Sequence record: NZ_CP149754.1
DNA length: 57,443 bases
Source: a plasmid
Direction: 5' to 3' (one strand)
The notes beneath the pieces were generated by a model. The model did no database searches, was not told the origin of the DNA, and saw nothing but the letters and a program-made list of their open reading frames with translations. A program made the position numbers and the translations under genes. Below are positions 993-56,156 of the stretch, in pieces; position 1 is the stretch's first letter; each line of letters opens with the position of its first letter.

Positions 993-1217
993 AAATTATA
1001 TTAACTAAGTGGTATGTAAAGGGAGTAGGCAAGTTTTATAAACAAATAACAGGAAGATTTTATATTAACTATGTGGTATGTAAATTATATGGTGCTTTCC
1101 AGTCTTGTGGTTTTACAGGTTCGTTTTATATTAACTATGTGGTATGTAAATGCGTTTAGGAATATGACAGCATCTATTAATACGACAAGTTTTATATTAA
1201 CTATGTGGACTTAAAAT
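993..1217 (+). CRISPR. CRISPR array 1: 4 repeats (first and last degenerate), 3 spacers of 35-37 bp; C. difficile type I-B-like 29-bp repeat
   Basis: Repeats at 993, 1057, 1123 and 1189. The degenerate repeat lies at the distal end. Confidence 0.9.
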
Positions 1218-1230
1218 TAAAAATAATTCA

Positions 1231-1262
1231 AAAACACTTACAAATGAGTAAGTGTTTTTTTA
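1231..1262 (+). terminator. rho-independent terminator after array 1
   Basis: AACACTTAC...GTAAGTGTT stem followed by a T7 run. Confidence 0.5.
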
Positions 1263-1345
1263 ATGAAAGGAGGTGATAATGATGTAAAAATTTTACTGAT
1301 ATAGTATAATAATCCTATAAATTCATTATAATAAAGGGGGATATT

Positions 1346-2119
1346 ATGGGATTATTTAGTGGAAATGAAAGTTGTTGTATATGTGGAGAAAAAGGTAAAC
1401 AAAAAATATCTGATGGTGTAATATGTTCTGAATGTTTAAAAAAATATAAAGATACATTTTCTATAGTCGAACCAACAGATGTAATTAAAAAAATATCTTC
1501 TGAGGAAATAAAAAAATCAATAAGATTAACACTTGAAAATAAAAAAAGATTTGAATCTTTTAACGCAAGTAAAAAAGTAGGAATTTATTTATTAGTAGAT
1601 GAAAATAAAAAACAATTAATTATATCTGATAAAATAAGCAATTTAAATAAGAATAAGAGAGTATATGACTTTAGGGATATTATTTCATTTGAACTTTTAG
1701 AAGATGATGAATCTATAATTAAAAGTGGATTAGGTGGTGCTATTGGAGGAGGTCTTTTATTTGGCGAAACAGGAGCTATAGCTGGAAGTATATTAGGAAA
1801 GAAAAAAATAAAAACTTATGTAAATAGTTTAAAGATAAAAATTACAATTAATAATATAAAGAATTCTACAAAGTATATATATTTAATTAATTCTAAAATT
1901 TCTACAAATTCAAGTTTATATAAAGAATCTTATAATTATGCCCAAGAGATTTTATCAACTTTGTCTATAATAACAAGTTCTAAGAGTATAGAAGATAAAA
2001 AAGAGTCTATATCTAGTTCTACAGCTGATGAAATATTAAAATATAAGAATTTGTTAAATATGGAAGCTATTACACAAGAAGAATTTGATGCTAAGAAAAA
2101 AGAATTGCTAAATTTATAA
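1346..2119 (+). CDS. hypothetical protein with N-terminal zinc ribbon (CxxC..CxxC), glycine-zipper segment and C-terminal SHOCT-like motif
   Basis: AGGGGGA RBS. N-terminus CCICGEKG...CSEC; C-terminus EAITQEEFDAKKKELLNL resembles a SHOCT domain. Confidence 0.5.
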   Translation: MGLFSGNESCCICGEKGKQKISDGVICSECLKKYKDTFSIVEPTDVIKKISSEEIKKSIRLTLENKKRFESFNASKKVGIYLLVDENKKQLIISDKISNLNKNKRVYDFRDIISFELLEDDESIIKSGLGGAIGGGLLFGETGAIAGSILGKKKIKTYVNSLKIKITINNIKNSTKYIYLINSKISTNSSLYKESYNYAQEILSTLSIITSSKSIEDKKESISSSTADEILKYKNLLNMEAITQEEFDAKKKELLNL

Positions 2120-2185
2120 TATATAAGCACTTACTTAAAAATAAGTAAGTGCTTATATTATGTTAAAAAAGAAAGGAGGTTAAAA

Positions 2186-4474
2186 ATGGCAACTATACAA
2201 ACATCTATCCGAATTTTCGACGGAATGACACCTGCTTTTAGACACATGACTAATGCTATGAATATTGTATTAAGTTCATTCGAGCAATTACAAAGAACAT
2301 CTAGCAATGCTATAGATGCTAATAGTATTAGAACAGCTAGAGAAGAACTAGCACGTGCAGAAGCTGGGTTTGATAGATTAGAACAACAAATAAGAGAAGC
2401 TGATGAACAACAAAAAAGATTTAATGATGATGTTAGAAAAGGAGCAAGTAGTACAGATAAGTTAGTAGAAAATGCTAAAAGATTAGTAGCAACTTATATT
2501 GGATTGAGAAGTGTTGGTGGTTTGATTAATTTAAGTGACCAAATGACGAGTACTAATGCGAGACTAGCTATGATAAATGACGGGCAACAATCTGATGGAG
2601 GACTCAACAAAATGATATTTCAATCAGCGGAAAGAGCAAGAGCATCTTATTTAGATACTGCAAAAATTGTAAGCAGAGTGGGCATGAATGCAGGCAAAGC
2701 ATTTAGTAGTACAAAAGAAATAGTAGCATTCGCGGAACAACTTAACAAGAAATTTGTAATTGCAGGAGCAACAACAGAAGAAACTAATTCAGCACTTTTA
2801 CAACTTACACAAGGTTTAGGAAGTGGCGTGTTAAGAGGCGAGGAACTAAATGCTGTGTTTGAGTCAGCACCTAATATTATTCAGTCTATTGCCGATTATC
2901 TCGAGGTCGATATAGGGAAGATAAGAGGTATGGCAAGTGAAGGAATGTTAACAGCAGATATTGTAAAAAACTCCTTACTTTCAGCGGCGGAGCAGACTAA
3001 TGCAGAGTTCGAGAAGATGCCTTATACATTTGGACAGATTTGGACATCAATAAAAAATAATGCAGTCATGATTTTTGGTGTTATACAGAAAAAAATAGAA
3101 CAATCTATGTCTAGCCGAGGTTTCCGAACCTTTATAGATAATTTTATCAGCGGATTATATGTTTTAGGTAATGTATTTTTTAACATTTTTAATGGAATTA
3201 TAAGTATATTAGGGAGCCCAGCTTTTCAAAGTTTTTCAAACACAATGATTGTTGGGATAAGTTTAATTTCACAAGCACTAGGCTGGATAGTAACACAAGC
3301 ATTAAACCTTGCTAATATATTTGCACAAAATTGGAGTATAATAGGTCCAATTATAGCAGGGGTTGTAGGGATTTTAGGTACTTATTTGATTGCATTAGGA
3401 AGTATATGGCTTTGGGAAACTTTATGCAAAATATCAAAAAATGCCTTAGCAATTGCTTCTGCAATACATGCTTTAGCAATACATGCAGAATTAACAGAAA
3501 CTCAAATGGCTACAGTTGCTCAATGGGGTTTAAATGCAGCTATTTTGGCGTGTCCGATTTTTTGGATAGTTGCAGGAATAATAGCTTTAGTAGCAGTCTT
3601 ATTTGTAGGAGTAGCAATATTCAATCATTTTGCAGGGACTAGTGTATCTGCTATAGGTATAGTTGCAGGTGCAATATCAGTTGCAGCTGCTTTTGTAGGA
3701 AATTTATTTATTGCAACAGGGAACTTAATTATAGATATTGTAGCTTTAATTTATAATAGTTTAGCAAACTTTGCAGAGTTCTTTGCTAACTTTTTAGACG
3801 ACCCGATCGGCTCTGTCATAAGGGCGGTATCTAGAATGGCTGATGCGGTATTAGGTATATTAAGAAGCATAGCATCTGCAATAGATACCATATTTGGCTC
3901 AAATCTAGCAAATGCAGTGAGTGGTTGGCAAGATAAATTACAAGGGTGGACTGACAAAGTAGCAGGAGAAGCTAAGATAAAAGTTGAACTAATGGACCCT
4001 AATAAACTGCATTTTGACAGATTTAATTGTGGAAAAGCTTGGGATGCAGGATATAAATGGGGAGATAAATTAGAAACTAATATAAAAGATAAATTCGATA
4101 TTAGCAAAATAGCAGAAAAGGCAAAAAAAGATTTAGGTCTAGATGACCTTTGGGATGACAAATATGGATTAGGAGATGGATTTGGTTCAGCAGGTCTTAA
4201 TTCACCTTTAAATGACGCAGCAAAAGGAGCAAAAGATACAGCAGGAAATACAGCTAAAATGGCTAAAACAATGGATAAAAGTCAAGAAGACTTAAAATAT
4301 CTTAGAGATATTGCAGAACAGGAAACAATAAACCGATTTACAGGGGTAAACATAAAAATTGATATGAACAATACAAATAACATAAGTAAAGATACAGATG
4401 TTGATGGAATAGTTAATGTCTTAACTGAAAAACTGAATGATGCTATGATTGTATCAGCAGAAGGAATAGTTTAG
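2186..4474 (+). CDS. phage tail tape measure protein
   Basis: 762 aa. N-terminal coiled-coil region, central hydrophobic TM-rich region, TP901-type core ([13 protein letters not shown]). Position after the tail chaperone is the expected one. Confidence 0.85.
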
Positions 4475-10225: not shown

Positions 10226-11686
10226 ATGCCTCCAGCGGAGACGTTCATATGTAATAGAATTGTTAAAAAAAGAAGAGGTTATTATTCAGAACGAGATGTT
10301 TTTCTTTCACCTTGTCCTTATGTTTATGGAGAAGGCGGTATGTATGAGTCAACTTACTATGGTGAGTTTGATTTAAGTAATTCTAAATATATAACAGTTC
10401 CTACAAGTACCAAATATGAAAAAACTGCAACTCGTGTTTATTTTATATCTGGTGGAAATATGATAACTAGTAGTAGTGGAATGAAACAAGCTATTACTCT
10501 TGAACTTATACCAGACCCTAATATTATTATAAATGATGATTTAGGTGTTATTAGTGATTCTTGTAATATAAATTATAGGATTCCAGACAGTAATACAAGT
10601 GTAAAATTTGATGTAACTGAAAAATTAAATGGTGTTGTAATATCTAAAAAAAACTATGCTCTTGATGGCAATTATACTTTAAATCTTACAGATGAACATT
10701 TATCAACTTTAAGTTTTAACTCTACAAATAATATAACTATAGAACTTAGTACTTATCAAGGGGGTAAGTTTTTAGAAAAAACGGTTACATTTACAAAAGG
10801 TAATACTAAACCAAAATTAAATATAACTTCTTATAATTCAACTACTGCAATCTTTACAGCAATAGACATAGATAATAACTTGTCTAAAATAGAGTGGTTC
10901 ATTGATGATGTATTAAAAGAAACAATAACAACAGATTTGTATTTAGAGAAAACAATCAACTATGAACTTACAGACAATGCAATACACACATTAAAAATAG
11001 TTGCTACAGATGCAGAAAATGCAACTGTTGAGAAGGTTTTAAGTATAAGCAAAGAGATAATGCCACTTCAAGAAGATGCTAGTTTAAGTGATATATCAAC
11101 TAAGTTAGCAGAGATTGGAGAAGAGTTTAGAAATGGTAAAACAAGTATTATAAATACTTTAGCATTAAAGAATATAGAAGCAAGTTTGAATAACACACTT
11201 GTTGAGTTATCAGAGAAAATAAAAACAAGTTTTGATAGTTCAGACGCTAGTGTGCAGGATTTGCAAAATAGAATAACAGAATTGAATAATCAGCTTAGTC
11301 AAAGAAAAAAATGGGCTACAGGTAGATATACATTTACAGATTTAGATATTTCAAATTTTACCTTAAACTCTGAATCAATTGTTCAGACGAAATCAATTAT
11401 AACAGATTTAAGTTTCACACCAAGTATAATAATAATTGATTCTATACAAATGAAAAGTGGAACTGATAGAGTTTATTTTCGATCTATAACAAATTTAGAT
11501 ATTACTATTGGTGCAAAATATACAAATTCATCCCTTCCAGTAGGAGGAAGTGGATATATTTATATACAAAAACCTACACCTAGTAATAATTTTTTATTAA
11601 TTTTAACCAGATTAGATGGTCAGGGAAGAGAAATAAGCTTTAGTCCAATTGTTGGGGAGACTTTGACATGGTATGCATTTGAATAA
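10226..11686 (+). CDS. tail fiber protein (XkdV-like); shares a ~140 aa internal module with 12367-14142
   Basis: Segment LNITSYNST...KIVATDAENATVEKVLSISKEIMPL...SLNNTLVELSEKIK is about 65% identical to a segment of the Gly-rich fibre. Confidence 0.65.
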   Translation: MPPAETFICNRIVKKRRGYYSERDVFLSPCPYVYGEGGMYESTYYGEFDLSNSKYITVPTSTKYEKTATRVYFISGGNMITSSSGMKQAITLELIPDPNIIINDDLGVISDSCNINYRIPDSNTSVKFDVTEKLNGVVISKKNYALDGNYTLNLTDEHLSTLSFNSTNNITIELSTYQGGKFLEKTVTFTKGNTKPKLNITSYNSTTAIFTAIDIDNNLSKIEWFIDDVLKETITTDLYLEKTINYELTDNAIHTLKIVATDAENATVEKVLSISKEIMPLQEDASLSDISTKLAEIGEEFRNGKTSIINTLALKNIEASLNNTLVELSEKIKTSFDSSDASVQDLQNRITELNNQLSQRKKWATGRYTFTDLDISNFTLNSESIVQTKSIITDLSFTPSIIIIDSIQMKSGTDRVYFRSITNLDITIGAKYTNSSLPVGGSGYIYIQKPTPSNNFLLILTRLDGQGREISFSPIVGETLTWYAFE

Positions 11687-12366: not shown

Positions 12367-14142
12367 ATGGCAACAGTTTATGAATTTAATTATACAGGAA
12401 GTGAACAACGTGCTACATTAAAACCCGGCAAGTATAAATTAGAATGTTGGGGGGCTTGTGGTGGTAGATATAAAGCTGATGATTTTACTACTTGTGCAAA
12501 AGGTGGTTATGCAAAAGGTGAAATTATATTAAAAGAGAAAACTAATTTTCGTATTTGTGTTGGTCAGTCAGGTTATGAAAAAGTTCTATCTACTTCTTCT
12601 TTTACTAGAACTGGTTATAATGGTGGTGGTGCTGGTGGATATTCTAATTTTGCTCCTTACAAATGGTCATTTGATGGTGGTGGTTCAACTGATATAAGAC
12701 TTTCTAGTGGTAATTCTTCTTGGGATGATTTAGAAGGTTTGCTTTCACGTATACTTATAGCAGGTGGTGGCGGTGGTGCTAGTGAATCTTCTGTTAGTAA
12801 ACTTGGTCATGGTGGTGGCTTAAATGGTGATAACGGAATTGGTTATCAAGGTAATTTCGCAGGTGGTGGCACACAATATCAAGGTGGTATTAATAATAGT
12901 TCAGATTTTGATGGTTTATTTGGTAAAGGTGGTAGTTATAATAAACATATAGGTGGTGGTGGTGGATGGTTTGGTGGTGCAGGTTGTGTTACAACTCAAA
13001 GTGCTGCTGGTGGTGGAAGTGGTTACGCACTAACTAAAGATAGTTACAAACCACAAGGATATATTCCATCATCAGAATATTGGCTAGAAAATGTAGTTAT
13101 GACCGCTGGAGGTAATACTACTAAAGCGGATGGTTATGCTAAAATAACATTACTACAAGCATTACCATTTTTGAATATATCCTCATATAATTCCACACAG
13201 GCAATATTTAAGGCTGACCACACAGACCCTACACTATTAACTAAGATAGAATATTTTATAGATGATACATTAAAAGAAACTATAACAACAGACTTAACAA
13301 CAGAGAAAACAATTAACTATACATTAGAAGATAATGCTCTACACACACTTAAAATAGTTGTTACAGACAATGCCAATGCTACAGCAGAAAAAGTTGTAAG
13401 TATAAGCAAAAATATAATGCCATTAGAGGATGGTGCTAGTTTACAGGATATAGCAACTAAAGTTAGCGAAATGAAAGATGGCTTAAAAAGCGGAAAAAGA
13501 AGTATTGTAAATGTATTAACATTAAAGGATATAGATGCAAGTTTAAACAATACATTTGTTGAATTATCTGAAAAGGTAAAAGATTATTTTGATAACGCAG
13601 ATTATTTTTTCCAAGAGGCTAACAAAGGAAAAGAATTAATTGCAACTACCATTGGTTCACCTGCAACAAAAGAAAATACTTATCAAGAATTATCAAGTTA
13701 TATAACTGAATTTAAAAATACTATAGGTACACTGACTACTCAACTTGAAAGTGCTAACAATAAACTGACAGACCCTTATATTACAAAAGTGAATAACAGA
13801 GGTGTTCCAAGTACTTTTACAGTTGATTTTCGCATGTATTATCCATCATCATCATTTACTCGTAGAAGTACTTGTATATATGTTGATGCTACTTTTATTC
13901 ACTATACTACACCAGGAGATATGAGTACAGGTGTTCATAAAAGTGTTAAATATGTTAAAACTGATACTAAAGATTTGAATGGTTATCGAATATTTTATGA
14001 TGGTGATGGAACTCTCAGCTTAACTTATGAAAATAATTCTGTGAGGGTTGTTATACAAGGAGGATATACAAGTTCACCTGGAAGAAAAAAATCTGATGTT
14101 TATTCTTATAATGTTCGTATGGTGAATACTTATTGGGATTAA
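12367..14142 (+). CDS. glycine-rich tail fiber / receptor-binding protein
   Basis: N-terminal GGGxGG repeats, a shared fibre module in the middle, and a unique C-terminus. Confidence 0.65.
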   Translation: MATVYEFNYTGSEQRATLKPGKYKLECWGACGGRYKADDFTTCAKGGYAKGEIILKEKTNFRICVGQSGYEKVLSTSSFTRTGYNGGGAGGYSNFAPYKWSFDGGGSTDIRLSSGNSSWDDLEGLLSRILIAGGGGGASESSVSKLGHGGGLNGDNGIGYQGNFAGGGTQYQGGINNSSDFDGLFGKGGSYNKHIGGGGGWFGGAGCVTTQSAAGGGSGYALTKDSYKPQGYIPSSEYWLENVVMTAGGNTTKADGYAKITLLQALPFLNISSYNSTQAIFKADHTDPTLLTKIEYFIDDTLKETITTDLTTEKTINYTLEDNALHTLKIVVTDNANATAEKVVSISKNIMPLEDGASLQDIATKVSEMKDGLKSGKRSIVNVLTLKDIDASLNNTFVELSEKVKDYFDNADYFFQEANKGKELIATTIGSPATKENTYQELSSYITEFKNTIGTLTTQLESANNKLTDPYITKVNNRGVPSTFTVDFRMYYPSSSFTRRSTCIYVDATFIHYTTPGDMSTGVHKSVKYVKTDTKDLNGYRIFYDGDGTLSLTYENNSVRVVIQGGYTSSPGRKKSDVYSYNVRMVNTYWD

Positions 14143-15603: not shown

Positions 15604-15855
15604 ATTGAGGATTGAATAAAATCCATTTACACTTTTCTTACATTTCATTTACACTTTTAATACAAATATACTATAAAAATACGATATAATTAAGACAGTT
15701 AAATTTATAATTAATATTAGTAAGAATCTTTAAAATAAATATAGCAACAGGTATATCATAACAAATAAATGACGAGAATTAGAGATAGTTAATCATGAGG
15801 ATAACTGTCTCTTTTTTATTGTCGAATAAATCAGAGAGTGAAGGGATTGAATAGA

Positions 15856-17115
15856 ATGAGAAAACTTGATAATATTAAGAAGGGCACTATAATTTTAGAT
15901 ATAATTCCTAATAGTGCAAATGGGAGAGATGCAATGAAAATTGAAAAAATTGAAATTAAAGGTATTGGTGGAATAAAAGAATTAAGTCTGAGGTTTAATA
16001 AAGGACTTAATATAATATGTGGTGCAAATGGTATAGGAAAGACAACTATTTTAGAAGTTATTTCACATCTTTTTTCTATACAATCTTCTGATTTAAAGAA
16101 AAATGCAAAATTTGATTTAGGAGAAGCAATAGCGGATTATTCGTTTGAAGATATAGAAGCTGTACATAAAAGTACTTATCAAATCAATGATTTCAATGCT
16201 TCTGTGAAAGAACTTATTTTTGATAATCGAGATAAAAAAAAATATAGTAAATTTGTGTTGTTTTTTAAGACACATAGAGAATTAAATTATTCAAAATTGG
16301 ATGGAATAACTGGAGATGAAACATATAGTGATGATAGTACATCTTATATGGCTGATTTAGGTATAGATTCAAGTAAAATAAAAAATTGGTTTATTAATAG
16401 ACTTCTTTTTTCTAAGCAAGAAGGTTCTCTTACAAAAGAACAATTATGTAATTTAGACTTAGCAATAGAAATGATTAGTATTTTAGATAAGAATGTATCA
16501 TATTCTAGAATTGTATCAGATTCTTTAGATTTAATGATAAATACTCCTCAAGGAGAAATTTATATAGAATATTTATCATCAGGATATAAATCATGTTTTT
16601 ATATATTATTAGGTATAATTAAGGAATTAGAATATAGATTTACTAAACCTTATATTGAAGTTAAGGATTTTGATGGTGTCATACTAATTGATGAGTTAGA
16701 CTTACATCTACATCCAGAATGGCAAGTTAAAATTGTAAATGCATTAAAAGTATTGCTTCCAAAGGCACAAATTATAGCAACAACACATAGCCCTAATATG
16801 ATACAAACACTATCACCAGATGAAATTATACCATTAACCATGGATGAAAATGGTAATGTGCGTAAAAAAGACTTAGAGTTAGGTGAATATGGATTGCAAG
16901 GATGGACTATTGAAGAAATATTGACAGATGTCATGGGAATGAAAACAACTTCTTCTGAGTTATATTTAGATACAATGAAAAAATTTGATAGAGCTATGGA
17001 TAAAGAGAATGTAGATGAAATCAAGAAATACTATGATATCTTGATGAAAATGTTACATCCAAATAGTACACTTAGAACAATACTGAAAATACAAGTGGCA
17101 GGAATAATAGATTGA
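15856..17115 (+). CDS. ptuA: AAA_15/AAA_21-type ABC ATPase, Septu PtuA-like
   Basis: Walker A GANGIGKTT near the N-terminus. Walker B/D-loop ILIDELDLHLHPEWQ...IATTHSP is typical of OLD/AAA_21 ATPases. The stop overlaps the next gene start (ATGA). Confidence 0.55.
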   Translation: MRKLDNIKKGTIILDIIPNSANGRDAMKIEKIEIKGIGGIKELSLRFNKGLNIICGANGIGKTTILEVISHLFSIQSSDLKKNAKFDLGEAIADYSFEDIEAVHKSTYQINDFNASVKELIFDNRDKKKYSKFVLFFKTHRELNYSKLDGITGDETYSDDSTSYMADLGIDSSKIKNWFINRLLFSKQEGSLTKEQLCNLDLAIEMISILDKNVSYSRIVSDSLDLMINTPQGEIYIEYLSSGYKSCFYILLGIIKELEYRFTKPYIEVKDFDGVILIDELDLHLHPEWQVKIVNALKVLLPKAQIIATTHSPNMIQTLSPDEIIPLTMDENGNVRKKDLELGEYGLQGWTIEEILTDVMGMKTTSSELYLDTMKKFDRAMDKENVDEIKKYYDILMKMLHPNSTLRTILKIQVAGIID

Positions 17116-17870
17116 TAAAAATAAATAGAACAAGAAAGCCTATTGAATTAACAGAAGAAGTTCAGAAACAATTAACAGAAGAATTTAAAAATAATAAAGA
17201 AAAAAGCGTGTGGAGGAAAAAGTATATTACAAATGCTCTACTTGAGATGTCTCATGGAAAATGTTGTTATTGTGAAATGAAATTGATAGAAGAGGGCAAA
17301 TCACTGAATGTAGAGCATTTTCACCACAAAGACAAATATCCTGATGAAGTAGTGAAATGGGAAAATTTATTGCCATCTTGTGGGAGATGCAATAGTGAAA
17401 AGGGTACTCATGACACTAAATTAGAACCTATAATAAATCCTGCAATAAATAACCCAAAAGATTATTTATATTTATATAATTATAGATATAAAAGTAAAAA
17501 TAGAAATAAACTTGGTAGTGATACAATTGATATATTATATTTGAATGATACAGACAAATTAATTAAACCAAGAGTAAATATTTGCATGGCTTTATTCAAA
17601 AGGTTAGAGTCTATAAAAACATTTGTTGAAGATTATCAAAATGGTACAGGAACACATACAAGAAGAAAAAATAAAATTATAAACGAAGTAAAAGGTGTAT
17701 TAAGATGCGCTCAACCAACTGAAGAATATAGTGCTATTGTGGCAAATGTTATAGTAAATGATGATGATTATAAATACATAAAAGAAATAATGTCAGAATT
17801 TAACTTGTGGGATAATGAACTAGAAGAATTAGAAAGTAAAGCAAAAGAAATAATGTTAGATTCAGAATGA
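17112..17870 (+). CDS. ptuB: HNH nuclease, Septu PtuB-like
   Basis: HNH signature CCYCE...EHFHHKDKYP...WENLLPSCGRCNSEKG. Translationally coupled to the upstream ATPase. Confidence 0.55.
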   Translation: MIKINRTRKPIELTEEVQKQLTEEFKNNKEKSVWRKKYITNALLEMSHGKCCYCEMKLIEEGKSLNVEHFHHKDKYPDEVVKWENLLPSCGRCNSEKGTHDTKLEPIINPAINNPKDYLYLYNYRYKSKNRNKLGSDTIDILYLNDTDKLIKPRVNICMALFKRLESIKTFVEDYQNGTGTHTRRKNKIINEVKGVLRCAQPTEEYSAIVANVIVNDDDYKYIKEIMSEFNLWDNELEELESKAKEIMLDSE

Positions 17871-32310: not shown

Positions 32311-32360
32311 AGTGATTTTAAGTAAAAATTGTAACAATTAAATAAGTATAAGACAAGTTT

Positions 32361-32612
32361 ATGAGTTCATATTTTATAACAAGGGGTGATGTTATGAAAA
32401 TACTACAACAATTTAAACCATACAAATATGATAAAGAAAAAAATATAGAATATGATGAAAAAATTATAGCTAATCAAAACACAGAAGTTTATATAGTATA
32501 TCCACGTATATCTGATGAAGAAAATAGGAGAAGATGGGAAGAGTTCAATGAAGTAGCTAAAGAAGTAGCTATTAATATAGCTATGAAGAAAGTTGAGACA
32601 GTAGAAAGTTAA
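32361..32612 (+). CDS. hypothetical protein
   Basis: 83 aa ORF in the early region. Confidence 0.35.
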   Translation: MSSYFITRGDVMKILQQFKPYKYDKEKNIEYDEKIIANQNTEVYIVYPRISDEENRRRWEEFNEVAKEVAINIAMKKVETVES

Positions 32613-34722: not shown

Positions 34723-35395
34723 ATATAAATGTTTAAAATGTAAGGATAGACTTTTCATAGAAACCGATGAAGGTTTTAAAGAATGTAAATGTAGGAAACT
34801 TAGGATAGCAGAAAATATTTTAAAAAATAGTGGAGTAAGTGAAGAATTTAGGAAATTAAAGTTTGATAATTTTAATTACCAAGTGGATTCTTCAGTAGCA
34901 AAAGCATTTACTAAAGCTATTGAGTACTCAAATTATTTTGAACAAATAAGAGAGATTAGAAGAAATTCAATTATATTTATGGGACAAGTAGGAAGTGGTA
35001 AAACTCATTTATCACTAGCAATAGCTAATAGTCTAATGAATAGGTCTATAAGTGTTATTTATATGCCTTATAGAGATTCTATGACATTAATAAAGCAAAA
35101 TATAATGGATGAAGAAACTTATAGAAGAGAAGTTGGAAAGTATAAATCAGCTAAGGTTTTATTAATTGATGATTTATATAAAGGCAATATAACAAATAGT
35201 GACATAAATATAATGTTTGAAATAATTAATTATAGATATTTAAATAAAATGCCATTGATTGTATCAACAGAAAAAAATTTTGATGAGCTTCTCGAAATAG
35301 ATGAAGCTATTGGAAGTAGATTAATTGAAATGAGTAAAAATTATTTGATTGAATTAAAGGGCAAAAGATTGAATTATAGAATTTATGGGGGATAA
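34583..35395 (+). CDS. DnaC/IstB-like helicase loader ATPase (true start probably downstream of 34583)
   Basis: Walker A MGQVGSGKTHLS and Walker B LLIDDL. N-terminal Cys cluster CLKCKDR...CKC. Confidence 0.7.
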   Translation: MTNKEKEILKQRVQNLILTVKKQESMTTNLKEQDRHLETLELNQDTEYKCLKCKDRLFIETDEGFKECKCRKLRIAENILKNSGVSEEFRKLKFDNFNYQVDSSVAKAFTKAIEYSNYFEQIREIRRNSIIFMGQVGSGKTHLSLAIANSLMNRSISVIYMPYRDSMTLIKQNIMDEETYRREVGKYKSAKVLLIDDLYKGNITNSDINIMFEIINYRYLNKMPLIVSTEKNFDELLEIDEAIGSRLIEMSKNYLIELKGKRLNYRIYGG

Positions 35396-37090: not shown

Positions 37091-37570
37091 GTGGATAAAG
37101 AAAGTATAAAAGAAATTGTAAGAGAATTGAGAAAAGAAGAAAGAGAAGATAGAAAAAAAGGAGTCTTATATAATACTAGATTATTAATGAAACATTATAA
37201 TGATTTTAAAAGACATATAAACTTAGCATTAAGTGAAGCTAAAGAAGTAAATTATTTAGAAGAAGATTTGTCTGATTTTGAAGATGAAGAGTTGTATATT
37301 TTAAGTATTAAAAAAAGTAAAACAAGAACTATTATTATGATAGCTCATATAGATTCAGCATTAAAAACATTAAAGTTAAGACAAGAGAGATTACAATCAT
37401 ATGAAAAATATAGAGCATTAGAGCTTTACTATTTTGATGAAAAAACTTATGAAGAAATAGCAGAAATATTAAACTGTGGAGTAGTTACATCAAGACGTTG
37501 GGTTAATGAGATGATAACAGAGCTTGGTATATATTTATTTGGTGTAGATGGTCTAAAATCAATTGTTTGA
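37091..37570 (+). CDS. ArpU/RinA-like late transcriptional regulator (sigma-70 region-4-like HTH)
   Basis: YYFDEKTYEEIAEILNCGVVTSRRWVNEM at the C-terminus. Confidence 0.5.
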   Translation: MDKESIKEIVRELRKEEREDRKKGVLYNTRLLMKHYNDFKRHINLALSEAKEVNYLEEDLSDFEDEELYILSIKKSKTRTIIMIAHIDSALKTLKLRQERLQSYEKYRALELYYFDEKTYEEIAEILNCGVVTSRRWVNEMITELGIYLFGVDGLKSIV

Positions 37571-44745: not shown

Positions 44746-44946
44746 ATGAAATTATGGGAATATGTAGGGAAAAATGTTCAAATAACTTGTGTAGATAAGC
44801 AAATAATAAGAGGAAAGTGTGATGGATATACACAAGCTTTAGATAATGAACCAGAAATAGCAAGTATATCAATAGCTAGGGATGGTTATGGAATTGAAGT
44901 TTATGAAAATGAAATAGAATCTATCGAAAATATAAATAAGGAATGA
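44746..44946 (+). CDS. small acidic protein immediately downstream of MuF gene (immunity-like candidate)
   Basis: AAGGAGG RBS; 66 aa; followed by a hairpin terminator. Confidence 0.4.
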   Translation: MKLWEYVGKNVQITCVDKQIIRGKCDGYTQALDNEPEIASISIARDGYGIEVYENEIESIENINKE

Positions 44947-45011
44947 CTAAGCATGTACTTAAAAATAAGTAGATGCTTTTATTTTGTAAAAAATGAAAGG
45001 AGAAATTTAAA

Positions 45012-49632: not shown

Positions 49633-50943
49633 ATGGCTTTAGGTGGAGGAACATTTGTAACACAAAATAAGGTCCTACCTGGTGCATATATAAATTTTGT
49701 AAGTGCTACAAGGGCAACCAGTTCATTATCGGATAGAGGTATTGTTGCAATGCCTTTAGAGTTAGATTGGGGCATAGATGAAGAAATTTTCACAGTAACC
49801 AGTGATGATTTTGAGAAGTATTCAACTAAGTATTTTGGATATGATTATACTCATGAGAAGCTGAAAGGTTTGAGAGATTTATTCAAAAATATAAGGTTGG
49901 GATATTTTTATAAATTGAATAAAGGTGTTAAAGCTAGTTGCAGTATTGCTACAGCTAAGTACTCAGGTACTAGAGGTAATGATTTAAAAGTTATAGTTAC
50001 AACAAACATTGATGATAACACTAAGTTTGATGTTGTAACACTTTTGGATAATAAGAAAGTAGATACCCAAATAGCAAAAGTTATTACAGACTTACAGGAC
50101 AATGACTATATTACTTGGAAGAAGGATACAACACTAGAAGCAAGTGCAGGGCTTGTATTTACTGGTGGAACTAATGGCGAATCAGTCACAGGAGCAGAGT
50201 ATCAAGCTTTCTTGGATAAAATAGAAAGCTACTCATTTAATGCACTAGGCAGTTTGGCTACAACAGCAGAAATTAAAAGTTTATTTGTAGAGTTTACTAA
50301 AAGAATGAGAGATAAAGTAGGAGCTAAGTTTCAAACTGTACTATATAAAAAGAATGATGCAGATTACGAAGGTGTAGTATCTGTAGAAAATAAAGTTAAA
50401 GATACTGGGTTATTAGAATCTAGTTTAGTTTATTGGACTACTGGAGCTATAGCAGGATGCGATATAAATAAATCTAATACTAATAAAAAGTATGATGGTG
50501 AGTTTGATGTTGATGTAAATTACACACAAATACAACTTGAAGAAGCACTAAAGAGTGGTAAATTTATATTTCATAAAGTTGGTGATGAAGTTCATGTGTT
50601 AGAGGACATAAATACTTTTGTATCATTTACAGATGATAAAAATGACGATTTTTCAAGTAACCAAAGTGTTAGAGTACTTGACCAAATTGCTAATGATATT
50701 GCAACTTTATTTAATGAAAAGTATTTAGGTAAAGTTCCGAATGATAAGGCAGGAAGAATAAGTTTCTGGAATGATGTTGTTAAACACCATAAAGAATTAG
50801 AGAATATAAGGGCAATAGAAGATTTTAAAACTGATGATGTTAGTGTAGAGCTTGGAAATGATAAGAAAACTGTCATAGTATCTGATGCTGTTAAGGTTAT
50901 AAATGCTATGAGTAAGCTTTATATGACTGTTTCAGTTAGTTAA
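49633..50943 (+). CDS. tail sheath protein (XkdK-like)
   Basis: MALGGGTFVTQNKVLPGAYINFVS is the typical sheath N-terminus; 436 aa. Confidence 0.8.
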   Translation: MALGGGTFVTQNKVLPGAYINFVSATRATSSLSDRGIVAMPLELDWGIDEEIFTVTSDDFEKYSTKYFGYDYTHEKLKGLRDLFKNIRLGYFYKLNKGVKASCSIATAKYSGTRGNDLKVIVTTNIDDNTKFDVVTLLDNKKVDTQIAKVITDLQDNDYITWKKDTTLEASAGLVFTGGTNGESVTGAEYQAFLDKIESYSFNALGSLATTAEIKSLFVEFTKRMRDKVGAKFQTVLYKKNDADYEGVVSVENKVKDTGLLESSLVYWTTGAIAGCDINKSNTNKKYDGEFDVDVNYTQIQLEEALKSGKFIFHKVGDEVHVLEDINTFVSFTDDKNDDFSSNQSVRVLDQIANDIATLFNEKYLGKVPNDKAGRISFWNDVVKHHKELENIRAIEDFKTDDVSVELGNDKKTVIVSDAVKVINAMSKLYMTVSVS

Positions 50944-51500: not shown

Positions 51501-51941
51501 ATGAGTAATTTAAGTGCTTTTTTAAGTCAAAATGCAATAAAGGTTGATAATGTAAAATATATAGCAAGTGATAGATTTTTAGACGAAGAAGGAAAGCCAG
51601 TTGAATGGGAATTAAAAGTTTTATCTTCTGAGGAAGATGAAGTATTAAGAAGAAATTGTACCAAAAGAGTAAAAGTGATTGGCAATAACGGGAAGCCAAC
51701 AGGTCAATTCACAAGTGAAATTGATTATAACAGTTATGTAGCTGAATTATGTGTAGCATCTACAGTATTTCCAGATTTAAAGGATGCCGAACTCCAAAAT
51801 AGTTATGGAGTGATGGGAGAAGCTCAGTTATTAAAGACAATGCTTACAGCAGGTGAGTATGTCAACTATACAGTAAAAGTTAATGAGGTTAATGGATTTG
51901 ATACAACATTTGAAGATAAAGTAGAAGAAGCAAAAAACTAA
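51501..51941 (+). CDS. XkdN-like tail assembly chaperone
   Basis: 146 aa. The slippery heptamer AAAAAAC sits at 51932-51938, just before the stop. Confidence 0.7.
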   Translation: MSNLSAFLSQNAIKVDNVKYIASDRFLDEEGKPVEWELKVLSSEEDEVLRRNCTKRVKVIGNNGKPTGQFTSEIDYNSYVAELCVASTVFPDLKDAELQNSYGVMGEAQLLKTMLTAGEYVNYTVKVNEVNGFDTTFEDKVEEAKN

Positions 51942-52135: not shown

Positions 52136-52283
52136 CAAAATAAAAAAATAAATATAGAATAGGTAAAATATGTAATAATTATATGTTATAATATTTTTAG
52201 CAAGAAGATGTAATCTACAATTTATAGAGTGGAGTTCATACAAAAGATTATCCTCCCAACGTATAGAAGGGAGGTGAATATGT

Positions 52284-52445
52284 ATGGATAATTTTTTGAT
52301 TGGTGTATTAGCTAGTTTAACAGCTAGTCTAATCGGTTACATAGTTTGTCTATGTATCAAAAAAGTAAAAAGCCACTCTGTGCAAGAGAGTGACTTAGAT
52401 GTTGAGCTTAAATTTTCATTTAAGTTCAAAAAAAATAAGCATTAA
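52284..52445 (+). CDS. type I toxin, second copy (53 aa)
   Basis: MDNFLIGVLASLTASLIGYIVCLCIKKVKSHSVQESDLDVELKFSFKFKKNKH. The 5' UTR hairpin (CCTCCC...GGGAGG) and promoter are conserved with 28085-28237. Confidence 0.65.
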   Translation: MDNFLIGVLASLTASLIGYIVCLCIKKVKSHSVQESDLDVELKFSFKFKKNKH

Positions 52446-52490
52446 ATTGTTTAGAACTTCACTCTACTTCCAAATAGATTGTAGTTTTTC
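52330..52490 (-). ncRNA. putative antisense antitoxin RNA, second copy (approximate)
   Basis: Minus-strand extended -10 TTTGTAGTATAAT at plus coordinates 52498-52510. Confidence 0.3.
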
Positions 52491-52726
52491 TTGATTTTAT
52501 TATACTACAAATTGGTACAGATATTTAAAAATAATATATTCATAATATTATAAAAATGTAGAGATTTTGCAGTGTTCGATTTTTGTAATAAAATATGGTT
52601 TAACAATTGGAATACAAGGCATTGAGGGTGTGTGATAAATGTTATCAATTGCACTACTCATGGTTCACTGCAAATTTGAGAGAGGTGTGTATGTGTAGGT
52701 ATTGGAAATGCTAAGTTTATTTTGGG

Positions 52727-53220
52727 GTTTTAGATTAACTATATGGAATGTAAATTTTGTATAAACAGGAGTAGTCCAACCACCAGCAACCTTGTTTTAG
52801 ATTAACTATATGGAATGTAAATATTTCATTCATACAATATTCGTGCAATGTAGGATGAGTTTTAGATTAACTATATGGAATGTAAATCAAATAGTCCAGC
52901 GAATTTAATTCATCAGTATAAACAATAGTTTTAGATTAACTATATGGAATGTAAATAACTTTTCGAGAGTCTCAATTTACAGAAGAAATTGGAGTTTTAG
53001 ATTAACTATATGGAATGTAAATTGTAATTAAGTTAGATATGGCAAAAGAAATAGCTATGCGTTTTAGATTAACTATATGGAATGTAAATTTTAATGATTC
53101 TACAACTCTTACAGACTCAGATGATGTTTTAGATTAACTATATGGAATGTAAATGGGTGGGAGATATGGCAACTATCCACACATGAAATTGGTTTTAGAT
53201 TAACTATGTGGATTCAAAAT
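52727..53220 (+). CRISPR. CRISPR array 3: 8 repeats (variant GTTTTAGATTAACTATATGGAATGTAAAT), 7 spacers (36-40 bp); terminal repeat degenerate
   Basis: Repeats at 52727, 52794, 52859, 52928, 52994, 53061, 53126 and 53192. Conserved leader upstream; hairpin terminator at 53228-53262. Confidence 0.9.
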
Positions 53221-53289
53221 TAAATAAACAAAGAAAGCACTTACAAACATGTAGGTGCTTTTGTTATGTAAAAAAATAGAGGTGATTAA

Positions 53290-53827: not shown

Positions 53828-54265
53828 TATATCACCATCCTTTCATAATTAATTTAGGAAGTATCTACTAATATTTCCTAAATTAATTATAGCATGGTAT
53901 ATTAGGGAGATTTGTTTATATTAAGAATAATATGTGGATATTTTATGTATGTAGTATATGAACTAAATAGATAATATAGTAAGCACTTACAAATATGTAG
54001 GTGCTTTTATAAAATATTTGAAATGATAGCACATTCCCGTTTTGGGAACATGGTCAAAACTCAAACTATATTACTAGTATATTAAATATGTAGTATCAAA
54101 ATTAAATAAAGAAAAGGAAGCACTTACTTTTGGTAGGTGCTTTTGTTTTGCTCAAATTTGGTCGGTTGGGTAAAATAATTAGAAAAAAAGATATAGCTGA
54201 GGTAGTGTTTTACGACGCTAGCTTCAATAAAATTTTATTTGCAAAATATTCCAAAATAGCTTGAC

Positions 54266-54547: not shown

Positions 54548-54586
54548 TGACGTATACTATACATCAACTAACTATAGTATACGTCA
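54548..54586. promoter_or_regulatory. perfect 14-bp inverted repeat TGACGTATACTATA-N11-TATAGTATACGTCA upstream of antirepressor gene
   Basis: Lies 35 bp upstream of the BRO gene start; the paralogous site is at 57226-57262. Confidence 0.5.
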
Positions 54587-54622
54587 TTCCTTAAAAAATT
54601 TCAATTAAGGAGTGTAATAGTT

Positions 54623-55489
54623 ATGAAAAATTTAATAGTAAAAGAGTTCAATGGAAGTCAAATTTATACTTTTATGTGGAAAGAAAAATCTTGTTGGATA
54701 GCTAATCAAATAGTTGGATTATTCGATTATGCTGATGTATCTAAAACAATACAGGATTGCATAAAAGCAGAAGACTTTGAGATTGAACAAGAGTATGATG
54801 TATTGAAAGGAAATGAATTTAATGATTTTGTAACTACTTTAAATGTAGTCGCAAATAATATAATTAGTAATAAAGCTAGAAGTATAACTATTTTTTATGA
54901 AGATGGTTTATATGGATTTTTACAATACACAGACAAACCTATTGGTGTACAGTTTAGGAAATGGCTTAGACGAGAAGTTTTACCAGCTATTCGACAACAT
55001 GGTGCATACATAACAAATAACGCTGACCCTCAAGCATTAAGAGAAAAAGCAAATGAAATAGAAAGTTTAGATACAGTTAATAAGACTATAGAAATACTAA
55101 CTCCATTCTTAGATAATGCTGGAATAGATGAAAAAGCAAAATTACTTACAGCAAAGACTATCTACAAAAAGGCAGGAATAGAGTTACCTCTTGAAATAGA
55201 AGAGAAGGAACATTTCTTTGATACTGTACAAATAGCAACTAAGTTAAATGTTTATTCTAAGTCTAATAAACCTGCATTTCATGCAATAGGTGAAATTATT
55301 AAGAAGTTAGATATACAAGATAATGAAAAGTTAGTAGTACTAGAGAGTAAAAGAGGTTGGAGTGGAAGTGTCAATAAGTATTCACAGAGTGTAATAGATA
55401 AAATAAGACATTGGATAGAGGAGAATAATAGACCTACTAAGATACAAGGTGAGAAGAAGAATTTTCATGTGGTTTATAAAATTGAGTAA
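54623..55489 (+). CDS. BRO-N / KilA-C phage antirepressor (intact copy)
   Basis: BRO-N motif FRKWLRREVLPAIRQHGAYITNN. 288 aa. AAGGAG RBS. Confidence 0.75.
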   Translation: MKNLIVKEFNGSQIYTFMWKEKSCWIANQIVGLFDYADVSKTIQDCIKAEDFEIEQEYDVLKGNEFNDFVTTLNVVANNIISNKARSITIFYEDGLYGFLQYTDKPIGVQFRKWLRREVLPAIRQHGAYITNNADPQALREKANEIESLDTVNKTIEILTPFLDNAGIDEKAKLLTAKTIYKKAGIELPLEIEEKEHFFDTVQIATKLNVYSKSNKPAFHAIGEIIKKLDIQDNEKLVVLESKRGWSGSVNKYSQSVIDKIRHWIEENNRPTKIQGEKKNFHVVYKIE

Positions 55490-55543
55490 ATTTATCAGTT
55501 GTATTAAATAATATATTTTAGTTTATTTTGGGGGGTTAATACA

Positions 55544-55699
55544 ATGTGTGAGAATTTACTTGATATGGATAGAATAGAACTTATTAGAGAACTTGGAAGT
55601 ATCTTTGAAAAAATGAGAAATGAAAATCCAGATAAATTTTATAGATTTGTAAGTTTAGTGAAAGAAGAATGTAGGAAAAAAGAAGAGAAAAATAAGTAA
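55544..55699 (+). CDS. small hypothetical protein (51 aa), paralog of 738-914
   Basis: GGGGGG RBS. MCENLL N-terminus conserved. Confidence 0.4.
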   Translation: MCENLLDMDRIELIRELGSIFEKMRNENPDKFYRFVSLVKEECRKKEEKNK

Positions 55700-55796
55700 A
55701 TAATATAAATAAAGCACTTGGATATTATGTTGTTTCAAGTGCTTTGTTTGTTAAAAAGTGGTATAATAAAAATATAGAAATCTATAAACACAAGTC

Positions 55797-56156
55797 GTTT
55801 TATATTAACTAAGTGGTATGTAAATCGTACAGATAGTATTGCATTAGAGGAAAGTTTAAAAGCGTTTTAGATTAACTATATGGAATGTAAATGTTTTTAA
55901 AGCTTCTTCAAGTTGTATTTGTGTATAATGTTTTAGATTAACTATATGGAATGTAAATCCAACTGAATAAACAATAATTTTATCAATTTCTTTAGTTTTA
56001 GATTAACTATATGGAATGTAAATTATTTTACAGATGAACAATTACAATTACTTCTTGCATGTTTTATATTAACTAAGTGGTATGTAAATAAATCAAAAGA
56101 TAGGAATGATAATTTTAAAACTCCAAACTTTTATATTAACAATGTGGAGAAAAACT
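55797..56156 (+). CRISPR. CRISPR array 4: 6 repeats mixing two repeat variants, 5 spacers; terminal repeat degenerate
   Basis: Repeats at 55797 (ATATTAACTAAGTGGTATG type), 55864, 55930 and 55995 (AGATTAACTATATGGAATG type), 56061 (first type) and 56128 (degenerate). Promoter TGGTATAAT at 55759-55767. Confidence 0.9.

Follow-up and report, generated by a model that had tools for sequence, protein, structure and literature searches.

Four cas-less CRISPR arrays on a circular phiC2-like phage genome of C. difficile, probably directed against competing phages

Phages of C. difficile are known to carry CRISPR arrays of their own. The phiC2-like prophages have two to four arrays with 7-24 spacers, located between xkdN and the tape-measure gene (PMC4173771). 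Among them are CRISPR 3/4 and 15/16 of phiCD630-1/-2 and CRISPR 13/14 of phi027, which are cas-less, belong to the same 29-bp repeat family as the arrays described here, lie by Bro-N genes, have adjacent type I toxin-antitoxin genes and match targets with a CCW protospacer-adjacent motif (PAM) in other C. difficile phages. In strains 630 and R20291, the arrays within prophages belong to the most strongly expressed ones and have no cas genes, and the use of host Cas proteins was proposed for them (PMC4556805). A phage-delivered mini-array made of the 630 CR11 leader and repeat redirects the endogenous Cas3 (PMC7064742), and both reports support the usage of host Cas by such arrays.

Related arrays occur in other settings. 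The lytically propagated phage CDKM15, of a phiCD119-like lineage, carries a single cas-less array with a 215-bp leader by a Bro-N gene before the tail module, with the repeat ATTTTATATTAACTATGTGGTATGTAAAT and the PAM CCN (Rashid 2016, PMC5127024). The skin(Cd) element, a remnant of about 14 kb, has an array (CRISPR 6 in 630, CRISPR 10 in R20291) together with the CD1233.1/SQ808 module. Phage-borne arrays in conflicts between mobile elements are also found in Vibrio phage ICP1 and in phiCD211, the latter with a Cas3 fragment. However, ICP1 itself encodes a full type I-F cas set and is aimed at a host island, whereas the arrays described here are cas-less and aimed at rival phages.

The window, which is the whole stretch of 57,443 nucleotides analysed (NZ_CP149754.1), is a closed circle of 57.4 kb with a full set of phage modules. 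Its structural genes are 87-91% identical to those of the C. difficile myoviruses phiC2, CDMH1 and phiCDKH02, in agreement with the initial annotation, which had placed the arrays inside a phage genome. When the circle is closed, arrays 3, 4 and 1 lie between the homologue of the CDMH1 XkdN-like gene (51501-51941), the product of which is Phage_TAC_5 in sister prophages, and the tape-measure gene (2186-4474), in the vicinity of Bro-N/ORF6N genes. This is the site known from the phiC2-like prophages, and the numbers of arrays and spacers are within their range. The anatomy and counts match those of Hargreaves 2014 and Boudry 2015, so that the arrays belong to an established kind, as had been annotated. 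The window differs from the phiC2-like prophages in its spacers, in a duplicated BRO-plus-array cassette, and in integration into sigK by a serine recombinase instead of a tyrosine integrase. A further difference is that array 2, with its own toxin-antitoxin module, is outside the tail-gene island, in a skin(Cd)-type lysogeny module; ppBI9_1 is a precedent for this.

A repeat scan of the whole window and a separate parser gave identical positions for four arrays with 24 copies of the 29-bp repeat and 20 spacers, the same arrays that had been annotated at first. On the plus strand, array 1 (993-1217) has four repeats and three spacers (1022-1056, 1086-1122 and 1152-1188), array 2 (28526-28885) six repeats and five spacers, array 3 (52727-53220) eight repeats and seven spacers, and array 4 (55797-56156) six repeats and five spacers. 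The spacers are 35-40 nt long, with a repeat-to-repeat spacing of 64-69 nt, and all 20 are distinct, no pair sharing 12 nt or more. Nineteen copies in the window had at most three mismatches to the repeat consensus, compared with 0.00 expected from 100 dinucleotide-preserving shuffles, and the gathering score of RF01327 (CRISPR-DR14) in Rfam was reached by 15 repeats.

Some details had been absent from the initial annotation, namely two repeat variants, a chimera in array 4, a truncated or hybrid repeat in array 1 and a fifth, vestigial repeat. The variants are GTTTTATATTAACTA[T/A]GTGGTATGTAAAT, the A-first form of which is in array 2, and GTTTTAGATTAACTATATGGAATGTAAAT; array 3 consists of the G-variant, and array 4 mixes both variants as a T-G-G-G-T-degenerate chimera. 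In array 1 the first repeat, which begins with AAATTATATT, is either truncated at its 5' end or a hybrid; compared with array 4, a 20-bp deletion has removed the short leader together with the initial bases of this repeat. Because of the truncation, the first crRNA of array 1 may be made inefficiently. The G-variant agrees at every base with the consensus of the 630 CR11 array and is also the repeat of 630 prophage 1 (compared with PMC7064742 and PMC5127024), and the A-first variant, that of the array 2 internal repeats, is identical to the CDKM15 repeat (PMC5127024). Exact copies of the repeat were present in C. difficile chromosomes, but also in Hathewaya limosa, C. baratii and C. culturomicium. 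The reading as a C. difficile I-B repeat is thus right for the identity of the repeat, but not if it is meant as exclusive to C. difficile.

The right-hand terminal repeat is degenerate in all four arrays, with 4, 8, 5 and 8 mismatches in arrays 1-4, and a hairpin with a U run or a terminator follows each of them on the plus strand. These are at 1230-1262 after array 1 (terminator-like; -13 kcal/mol in the folded segment 1205-1275; called by the terminator scan on the minus strand only), at 28882-28912 after array 2 (-15.7 kcal/mol, segment 28870-28935), at 53234-53266 after array 3 (-17.1 kcal/mol, segment 53208-53285) and at 56168-56205 after array 4 (-14.2 kcal/mol, segment 56145-56215; also in the terminator scan). 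A degenerate distal repeat and a terminator had been annotated for every array and are there; a promoter-bearing leader had been annotated for every array as well, but the canonical leader is found at arrays 2 and 3 only. The region 28322-28525 before array 2 contains the promoter TTCAAA-17-TGATATAAT (28322-28350) and a canonical leader of about 170 nt that ends with TTTATTTTGGG, and the region 52524-52726 before array 3 contains a promoter-like site (TTTAAA-16-TATTAT) and a canonical leader, likewise of about 170 nt, with the same motif TTTATTTTGGG. Identity to the leader of 630 CR11, which was used functionally in PMC7064742, is 82% for array 2 and 79% for array 3. Arrays 1 and 4 have no conserved leader and only a bare extended -10 box TGGTATAAT upstream, predicted on the plus strand by a match to the consensus at 975-983, which is 9 nt upstream of array 1 and after a hairpin at 928-963, and at 55759-55767, which is 29 nt upstream of repeat 1 of array 4.

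The direction of array transcription is fixed as the plus strand because the CCW motif is 5' of the protospacers only in this orientation. Rfam places CRISPR-DR14 on the minus strand, and we rejected this reading, which is also against the right-hand degenerate repeats and the plus-strand terminators. The Rfam call is regarded as a model convention, outweighed by the PAM and the terminal-repeat evidence.

The initial annotation had supposed that the spacers target competing phages, and it proposed a search against phages, plasmids and the window itself, with a CCW PAM beside the hits. This search returned external protospacers for 15 of the 20 spacers, in C. difficile phages, phage-plasmids, plasmids, viral contigs or conjugative-type elements, and one near-self match; the other five spacers were without a target in the sequences searched. 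CCA or CCT was at positions -3 to -1 in 14 of the 15 matched spacers, compared with 1.8% in the background, and in the fifteenth the CCA was shifted by 1 nt, while the 3' flanks of these 15 protospacers had no motif. The motif agrees with the experimentally defined I-B PAM of C. difficile (PMC4556805), and its presence at 14 of the 15 protospacers ties the arrays to the I-B system of this species. Seed mismatches or a shifted PAM were found in six of the 15 with respect to the sequences searched, and the criteria of Boudry 2015 predict interference for only nine of the spacers. The targets include the closest relatives of the window phage, phiCDKH02 and CDMH1. The best match of A3s5 was an antirepressor gene of a Streptococcus phage with four mismatches, which is probably a conserved Bro/Ant segment rather than the true target. 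Pfam gave no domain for the 577-aa ORF matched by A2s3 or for the 105-aa ORF matched by A4s4. A seeming protospacer of A1s2 in L072 belongs, as a spacer, to another array; it is on the opposite strand with a 28-nt overlap and was left uncounted.

The near-self match, the only one among the 20 spacers in the window, is that of A4s2 in the tail-sheath gene (50519-50555, minus strand). The CCA PAM is kept there and the five mismatches are at positions 1, 3, 8, 9 and 33, of which three fall in the seed, whereas the sheath genes of phiCDKH02 and CDMH1 match A4s2 perfectly. To judge from these positions, the sheath gene of the window phage would evade its own spacer through the seed mismatches. The closest deposited phage, phiCDKH02 (PP767789.1), with structural genes about 90% identical to those of the window, carries two arrays that lack annotation, at ~34898-35254 and ~37119-37408 of its record and within the same island, but differs in having a tyrosine integrase and other early genes. 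Eight of its nine spacers differ from those of the window, and one is shared (A4s4, two mismatches). Since a phiCDKH02 spacer matches the window at 56691-56727 (plus strand) with two mismatches (positions 25 and 31) and a CCA PAM, the two phages target each other reciprocally.

There are also signs of spacer turnover. Array 3 differs at the leader end among the sigK prophages of different chromosomes: the leader-proximal spacer A3s1 is missing from otherwise identical arrays in other genomes, and the window thus has one extra spacer, which matches CDMH1 perfectly with a CCA PAM. The spacer content of array 4 was invariant across all related prophages examined.

It might be supposed that the arrays are inert hitch-hikers, that is, decaying copies of chromosomal arrays which were gained by recombination and are neither expressed nor used. 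Decay is indeed visible, in that one array is already reduced to a remnant (54074-54144, plus strand) of a single terminal-type repeat (54074-54102), which is degenerate and has 84% identity to the array 3 end, and a terminator (54116-54144), the first repeat of array 1 is truncated, array 4 is chimeric with frozen spacers, and the BRO paralogue nearby is a pseudogene. However, the internal repeats of the arrays are perfectly conserved and a promoter-like box and a terminator have been kept at every array. Five of the matched spacers fit extant phages or plasmids perfectly with the correct PAM, and array 3 has gained a spacer at its leader compared with the sister prophages. Moreover, in 630 and R20291 the homologous arrays of prophages show high transcription and are processed (PMC4556805). 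We therefore consider it improbable that the arrays are inert.

The window was initially annotated as having no cas genes, and the scans gave the same result: Pfam detected no Cas family in 40 ORFs, nor did NCBIfam in 10 of these, and the remaining genes are homologues of structural genes annotated in relatives. In C. difficile, no cas genes were seen beside the exact repeat in 8-kb stretches around six arrays, the ORFs being domain-scanned in three. Among the loci fetched, cas1-cas2 adjoin the identical G-variant repeat in C. culturomicium only, and the cas association in C. difficile therefore rests on the literature. In a scan of all 79 ORFs, Septu was revealed in the window among the best 25 of 228 PADLOC families.

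A full dependence on host Cas would also be expected if the arrays worked against the host, either by titrating away Cas complexes as decoys or by guiding them to defence islands, like those of ICP1. Two spacers, A3s6 and A4s1, match conjugative or plasmid-type rather than phage genes, and the five unmatched ones leave some room for such a role. However, 13 of the 15 matched spacers are directed at phage or phage-like DNA or at extrachromosomal DNA that is unclassified (viral contigs, large plasmids), and none of the 15 recognisably matched a host core or defence gene in the sequences searched. A temperate phage that needs the Cas activity of its host would have no gain from crippling it. The acrIB2 locus (phiCD38-2 gp25-27, three genes downstream of the endolysin) had no homologue in the window by tblastn, and an anti-CRISPR gene of this kind was rejected. 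A role against the host is accordingly very unlikely.

Instead, we suggest with considerable confidence that these are bona fide cas-less I-B arrays of a temperate phiC2-like myovirus, which borrows the Cas proteins of its host as a weapon of superinfection exclusion. From the literature on homologous arrays, each array would be read on the plus strand from its own promoter and would end at its own terminator. Host Cas6 would cut the pre-crRNA within the 29-nt repeat to leave an 8-nt 5' tag, and the crRNAs would load into the host I-B Cascade/Cas3, which may then destroy incoming DNA that has a matching protospacer beside a 5' CCW PAM. The likely targets are rival temperate phages, including the closest kin of the window phage, phiCD119-type myoviruses, phiCD38-2-type siphoviruses and phiCD211-type giant phage-plasmids, and further plasmids and conjugative-type elements. 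Such superinfection exclusion would benefit the prophage and the lysogen alike. Arrays 2 and 3, which have the canonical leader, could still grow at the leader end via host Cas1-Cas2-Cas4 and appear to move jointly with a type I toxin-antitoxin module, as one cassette, while arrays 1 and 4, with a minimal promoter only, seem to be fixed and to serve for expression only.

The finding is genuine, but nothing out of the ordinary, because cas-less arrays are a well-documented habit of this phage group, and no new CRISPR principle is involved. It provides a clean and well-resolved case of warfare between phages with borrowed Cas proteins, in which reciprocal targeting of sister phages, self-escape by seed mutation and a growing array with a canonical leader versus frozen arrays with minimal promoters are combined. 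Such spacer sets help to forecast which phages of C. difficile, engineered or meant for therapy, will not succeed on lysogens.

The relationship with skin(Cd) may matter more. Array 2 has the same position as the skin(Cd) array, and the order of recombinase, TPR protein, Cwp26, toxin and array is common to both. The segment 21663-23755 has 100% and the segment 23816-28321 has 99.9% identity to the corresponding end of the chromosomal skin(Cd); together they span the recombinase, Cwp26, the toxin and the place where array 2 lies. The region of the CD1231-type large serine recombinase is 99.9% identical to the chromosomal skin, and the recombination directionality factor CD1234 is identical in 72 of 72 aa, with a SpoIIID box TGTAACAAT at 32330. 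The leader and array 2 themselves are only about 78% identical to the skin copy examined, with zero shared spacers. In spite of the identical ends, it is hardly credible that the window is the chromosomal sigK-intervening skin(Cd) element with ordinary host arrays, as its genes for packaging, head, tail, lysis and replication form a complete set with homology to plaque-forming C. difficile myoviruses, and as it carries attP and not attL or attR and has three of the four arrays in the xkdN-to-tape-measure island typical of phiC2-like phages.

The 57.4-kb window is also unlike a defective remnant of about 14 kb and 19 genes, as which skin(Cd) is known. Its sole integrase is the sigK-type serine recombinase, and the 12-bp attP core TTATTTCATTAC is also that of attL and attR. 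The window is a full-length phage genome in its circular attP form, an unexpected by-product of the analysis, and this phage integrates into sigK by the skin(Cd) recombination module. Identity with phi027 was rejected, as this phage has its own integrase CDR20291_1415, and so was identity with phiCD630-1/-2, as the 630 prophages are elsewhere in the chromosome; phi027 likewise has another chromosomal position. The part 15601-40600 had almost no matches among phages and plasmids. We raise, as a tentative possibility that we hold with less than even confidence, that a complete and possibly still infectious phiC2-like myovirus is present in the window in its excised attP form, and that the skin(Cd) of about 14 kb in reference strains, with its array and toxin-antitoxin module, is a deletion derivative of this phage. 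If this is true, a 57-kb phage genome armed with CRISPR arrays would be excised whenever the mother cell rebuilds sigK during sporulation, in the many strains whose sigK carries the full-length element. The observation connects the sporulation-controlled skin(Cd) with a full-length phage found commonly among sequenced strains, and the origin that it suggests for the skin array and its toxin-antitoxin module can be tested.

The toxin-antitoxin module upstream of array 2 (27985-28326) begins with an extended -10 box TGTTATAAT (27985-27993) and includes a toxin ORF of 50 aa on the plus strand (28085-28237; NF047374 CD_typeI_toxin of NCBIfam, 73.5 bits with a cutoff of 60). A hairpin in the 5'UTR of the toxin, in which CCTCCC at 28055 pairs with GGGAGG at 28069-28077, hides the ribosome-binding site. 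A putative convergent antisense unit is on the minus strand, with a promoter (28326-28297) and a terminator (28197-28171) predicted from consensus matches. This predicted layout matches that of the CRISPR-adjacent type I modules with RCd antisense RNA described by Maikova 2018 (PMC5961336). The second module, upstream of array 3 (52184-52545), is 85-92% identical to the first and has a toxin ORF of 53 aa on the plus strand (52284-52445; NF047374, 65.9 bits with a cutoff of 60), inside which a consensus match gives a putative antisense terminator (52396-52370, minus strand). Both toxins have the hydrophobic N-terminus and the lysine-rich C-terminus of this family of 50-53-aa proteins, and NCBI lists the exact 53-aa protein as a 'type I toxin-antitoxin system toxin'.

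In line with the initial annotation, the four arrays are best explained as expressed, cas-less I-B arrays that would exclude rivals by using the Cas6, Cascade and Cas3 of the lysogen. In the proposed mechanism, the arrays would be transcribed and then processed by host Cas6 to crRNAs with the 8-nt 5' tag ATGTAAAT, and host Cascade and Cas3 would be guided against competing phages and other mobile elements. The anatomy of the arrays, their targets and PAM statistics, the avoidance of self, the reciprocal targeting and the polymorphism were observed directly, and we infer transcription and processing from the prophage arrays of strains 630 and R20291, which rank among the most abundant CRISPR transcripts (PMC4556805). 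Homologous systems also suggest that a phage-delivered leader-repeat-spacer unit would be sufficient to direct endogenous Cas3: Selle 2020 (PMC7064742) achieved this by phage delivery of a unit with a nearly identical leader and with the very G-variant repeat found in array 3. Pfam scans of 40 window ORFs, with NCBIfam added for 10 of them, found no Cas domain, in agreement with the absence of cas genes reported in the initial annotation.

All four arrays lie on the + strand: array 1 at 993-1217 (4 repeats, 3 spacers), array 2 at 28526-28885 (6 repeats, 5 spacers), array 3 at 52727-53220 (8 repeats, 7 spacers) and array 4 at 55797-56156 (6 repeats, 5 spacers). On rescanning, these coordinates and the 20 spacers agreed exactly with the initial annotation, and the degenerate distal repeat that it had described was seen at the right-hand end of every array. 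Nineteen repeat copies had at most 3 mismatches to GTTTTATATTAACTATGTGGTATGTAAAT, compared to none in 100 dinucleotide-preserving shuffles of the window, and 15 repeats passed the gathering score of Rfam CRISPR-DR14. The spacers were 35-40 nt long (n=20) and no pair had 12 nt or more in common. Arrays 1 and 2 use a 'T' repeat variant, GTTTTATATTAACTA[T/A]GTGGTATGTAAAT, with the A-first form within array 2; array 3 uses a 'G' variant, GTTTTAGATTAACTATATGGAATGTAAAT, and the repeats of array 4 are a T-G-G-G-T chimera of both. The description of this 29-bp repeat as characteristic of C. difficile has to be softened with respect to exclusivity, because there are matches in other species. The exact G-variant repeat occurs in C. 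culturomicium (contig L030), directly 3' of cas1-cas2. A degenerate 29-nt pattern with four variable positions was also matched in Hathewaya limosa, Clostridium baratii, C. bornimense and Caloranaerobacter, where the matches represent a related variant absent from the window. The locus at 54074-54144 consists of a single degenerate repeat, similar to the last repeat of array 3, with a terminator after it; it is probably a fifth, decayed array stripped of all its spacers.

Arrays 2 and 3 form the 3' part of a ~900-bp cassette present in two copies (27979-28553 versus 52178-52754, 85-92% identity). The first part of both copies is a type I toxin-antitoxin module, whose toxins of 50 aa and 53 aa both score above the NCBIfam equivalog cutoff for CD_typeI_toxin. 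A hairpin in the toxin 5'UTR is predicted to sequester the ribosome-binding site, and a predicted promoter and terminator on the - strand would suit a convergent antisense RNA. The same co-localisation of arrays and toxin-antitoxin modules was described by Maikova 2018 (PMC5961336). The second part of the cassette is a putative promoter and then a ~170-nt leader with TTTATTTTGGG at its end; relative to the leader of CR11, an array of strain 630, identity is 82% for array 2 and 79% for array 3. Arrays 1 and 4 belong to another cassette type, likewise duplicated, in the order small ORF, BRO gene, small ORF, hairpin, TGGTATAAT box, array and terminator. The distance from the extended -10 box to the first repeat is just 29 nt in array 4 and 9 nt in array 1, in which a 20-bp deletion took out the short leader along with the initial bases of repeat 1. 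The promoter-bearing leader that had been proposed for each array is present in canonical form in arrays 2 and 3, and arrays 1 and 4 have only the minimal extended -10 box. The terminators proposed after each array were found 3' of all four as a stable hairpin with a U run, and the folded downstream segments ranged from -13 to -17 kcal/mol.

Targets of the 20 spacers were sought in INPHARED (phages), PLSDB (plasmids) and IMG/VR, and the flanks of the matches were then read. This check of spacer targets, suggested in the initial annotation together with one for an adjacent CCW PAM, yielded protospacers for 15 of the 20 spacers, which are numbered here by array and from the leader end. Perfect matches were obtained for A2s3 (577-aa ORF in eight viral contigs; CCA), A3s1 (CDMH1 gp30 and ~33-kb phage-plasmids; CCA), A4s2 (tail-sheath gene of phiCDKH02 and CDMH1; CCA), A4s3 (phosphoesterase gene of phiCD211-type ~130-kb phage-plasmids; CCA) and A3s6 (gene in NC_017177.1 by PrgI and ATPase genes, type IV secretion-like; CAA, with CCA one base out). 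A2s4 matched the 62-kb plasmid pCd5_2 with one mismatch (CCT). Two mismatches separated A1s1 from an NlpC/P60 tail hydrolase gene (CCA), A2s5 from repR of phiCD119/phiCDHM19 (CCT), A3s4 from gp25 of phiCD38-2 and relatives (CCA), A4s1 from a type IA topoisomerase gene on a 306-kb plasmid (CCA), A4s4 from a 105-aa ORF in viral contigs (CCT or CCA) and A4s5 from 136-145-kb plasmids (CCT). A1s3 matched the tape-measure gene of phiCDKH02 with three mismatches (CCT), and A3s3 and A3s5 matched the small terminase gene of phiCD146 and an antirepressor gene, respectively, with four each (both CCA). A1s2, A2s1, A2s2, A3s2 and A3s7 had no target among INPHARED, PLSDB and IMG/VR. CCW, which has been established by experiment as the C. 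difficile I-B PAM (PMC4556805), occupied positions -3 to -1 in 14 of the 15 matched spacers, compared to a background of 1.8%, and no motif was found in the 3' protospacer flanks of these 15. Because the PAM is 5' and no motif is 3', the direction of transcription of the arrays is settled. By the Boudry criteria (a CCW PAM, a seed free of mismatches except at position 6 and at most 5 mismatches in the distal part), nine spacers would be expected to act on sequences that the databases already contain. In an IMG/VR contig (L072, 1152-1196), a different C. difficile phage array has, at its trailer end, a spacer that shares a 28-nt overlap with A1s2 on the opposite strand, and the two spacers were apparently drawn from the same target region.

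A search for self-targets, likewise suggested at the outset, returned a single near-self match, that of A4s2 to the sheath gene of the phage itself (50519-50555, - strand). This site keeps its CCA PAM, but mismatches at positions 1, 3, 8, 9 and 33 break the seed, whereas A4s2 matches the sheath genes of the two closest relatives perfectly. In the other direction, a spacer of phiCDKH02 (L002, 5992-6028) matches 56691-56727 of the window, within an ORF of the phage's CRISPR island; the site has a CCA PAM and differs at two positions, both distal. phiCDKH02 is matched in turn by A4s2 and A1s3, and thus the two phages target each other.

We compared the arrays with seven related island copies, all of which encode an identical BRO protein; insertion in sigK was shown for two of the seven (chromosomal). 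Array 4 had the same five spacers in all copies compared, and array 1 had lost its middle spacer in some copies and carried two different spacers in one contig (L047). Array 3 varied at the leader end, with s1-s7 in the window versus s2-s7 in two genomes, and the extra spacer s1 is the perfect match to CDMH1. The pattern of array 3 fits polarised acquisition at a canonical leader during the prophage state, and the data also fit minimal-promoter arrays without acquisition.

By sequence comparison, the window belongs to the phiC2/CDMH1/phiCDKH02 group of C. difficile myoviruses. Its structural genes are 87-91% identical in nucleotides to this group, its other genes have annotated homologues among packaging, head, tail and lysis genes, and any one deposited phage covers at most 54% of either window half. 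The window is a closed circle opened at an arbitrary point, because a BRO-family ORF spans the 57443-to-1 join and contig L020 is colinear across it. This second BRO-family gene (57298-57443 joined to 1-~716), a paralogue of 54623-55489, is broken in the window by a frameshift and an in-frame stop, and sister prophages have an intact 273-aa form. L020 is a MAG contig named 'uncultured Veillonella sp.', but in view of its 82-95% identity to the CRISPR island of the phage it evidently comes from a C. difficile phage and was mis-binned.

After closure of the circle, arrays 3, 4 and 1 lie in one ~7.7-kb accessory island between an XkdN-like tail chaperone gene (51501-51941) and the tape-measure gene (2186-4474), which is the exact site of the arrays of phiC2-like prophages (Hargreaves, PMC4173771). 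In all phiC2-like prophages, according to Hargreaves 2014, the region from xkdN to the tape-measure gene contains 2-4 arrays and 7-24 spacers; cas genes are absent, Bro-N/ORF6N genes are neighbours and the spacers are directed against other C. difficile phages. One prophage, ppBI9_1, had an additional array elsewhere. The four arrays and 20 spacers of the window are within this range, and identical copies of the window proteins are found on hundreds of publicly available C. difficile contigs. The window is therefore a well-resolved case of an already-known array type. Near-identical terminator hairpins (GCACTTAC...GTAGGTGCTTTTGTTTTGCTCA) dot the island at 53236-53262, 53983-54008, 54116-54144, 56168-56196 and 56851-56880, and also occur at 2109-2178 and 44933-45002; they may be module boundaries or recombination substrates.

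Directly 3' of the endolysin gene is a Septu-type defence pair, consisting of a PtuA AAA ATPase (15838-17115, PADLOC E = 4e-167) and a PtuB HNH nuclease (17112-17870, E = 4e-102), which is a second anti-phage system of the same prophage. In the tail-fibre region, the genes at 10226-11686 and 12367-14142 contain a 300-bp direct repeat (10884-11183 versus 13241-13540, 73% identity), which suggests a shared domain or a recombination substrate.

The lysogeny module of the phage can be identified, from its sequence, as the skin(Cd) element, which was termed a decayed prophage remnant in the literature searched. The right end of the sigK-intervening element in the chromosome matches window positions 21663-23755 at 100% identity, and the left end matches 23816-28321 at 99.9%. 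From the 3' side of sigK, the chromosomal element carries genes for a recombinase, a TPR protein, Cwp26 and a toxin and then a CRISPR array, beyond which are a BlaI-like repressor gene, VanZ and a 64-aa ORF. Both ends are joined in the window at 23798-23845 in the excised configuration, attP, where the junction ACATATAAAGAGTAGTGT-TTATTTCATTAC-ACACTACTCTTTATATGT is a perfect inverted repeat about a 12-bp core that is also present at attL and attR in chromosomes. This organisation agrees with that of Serrano 2016. A directionality-factor gene of the CD1234 type (32394-32612) encodes a product identical to the skin factor at 72 of 72 residues, and the SpoIIID box upstream of it, TGTAACAAT (32330-32338), matches the published box. 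Full-length prophages lie within sigK in several complete C. difficile chromosomes, e.g. CP016133.1, and in these integrated copies the tail, lysis and Septu genes lead to the VanZ end and then to the sigK 5' fragment. Among deposited phages, no recombinase was more than 53% identical to that of the window, and the recombinase of the C. perfringens sigK phage PhiS63 was 47% identical. Because the module is the skin(Cd) element, array 2 corresponds in position to the skin array (CRISPR 6 of 630, CRISPR 10 of R20291). The cargo of the skin-type module (21766-22984 and 25496-27935) comprises genes for a repressor of the BlaI/MecI type and a protein resembling VanZ, together with those for a TPR protein and the cell-wall protein Cwp26, and a phage with such a module could carry these genes between strains.
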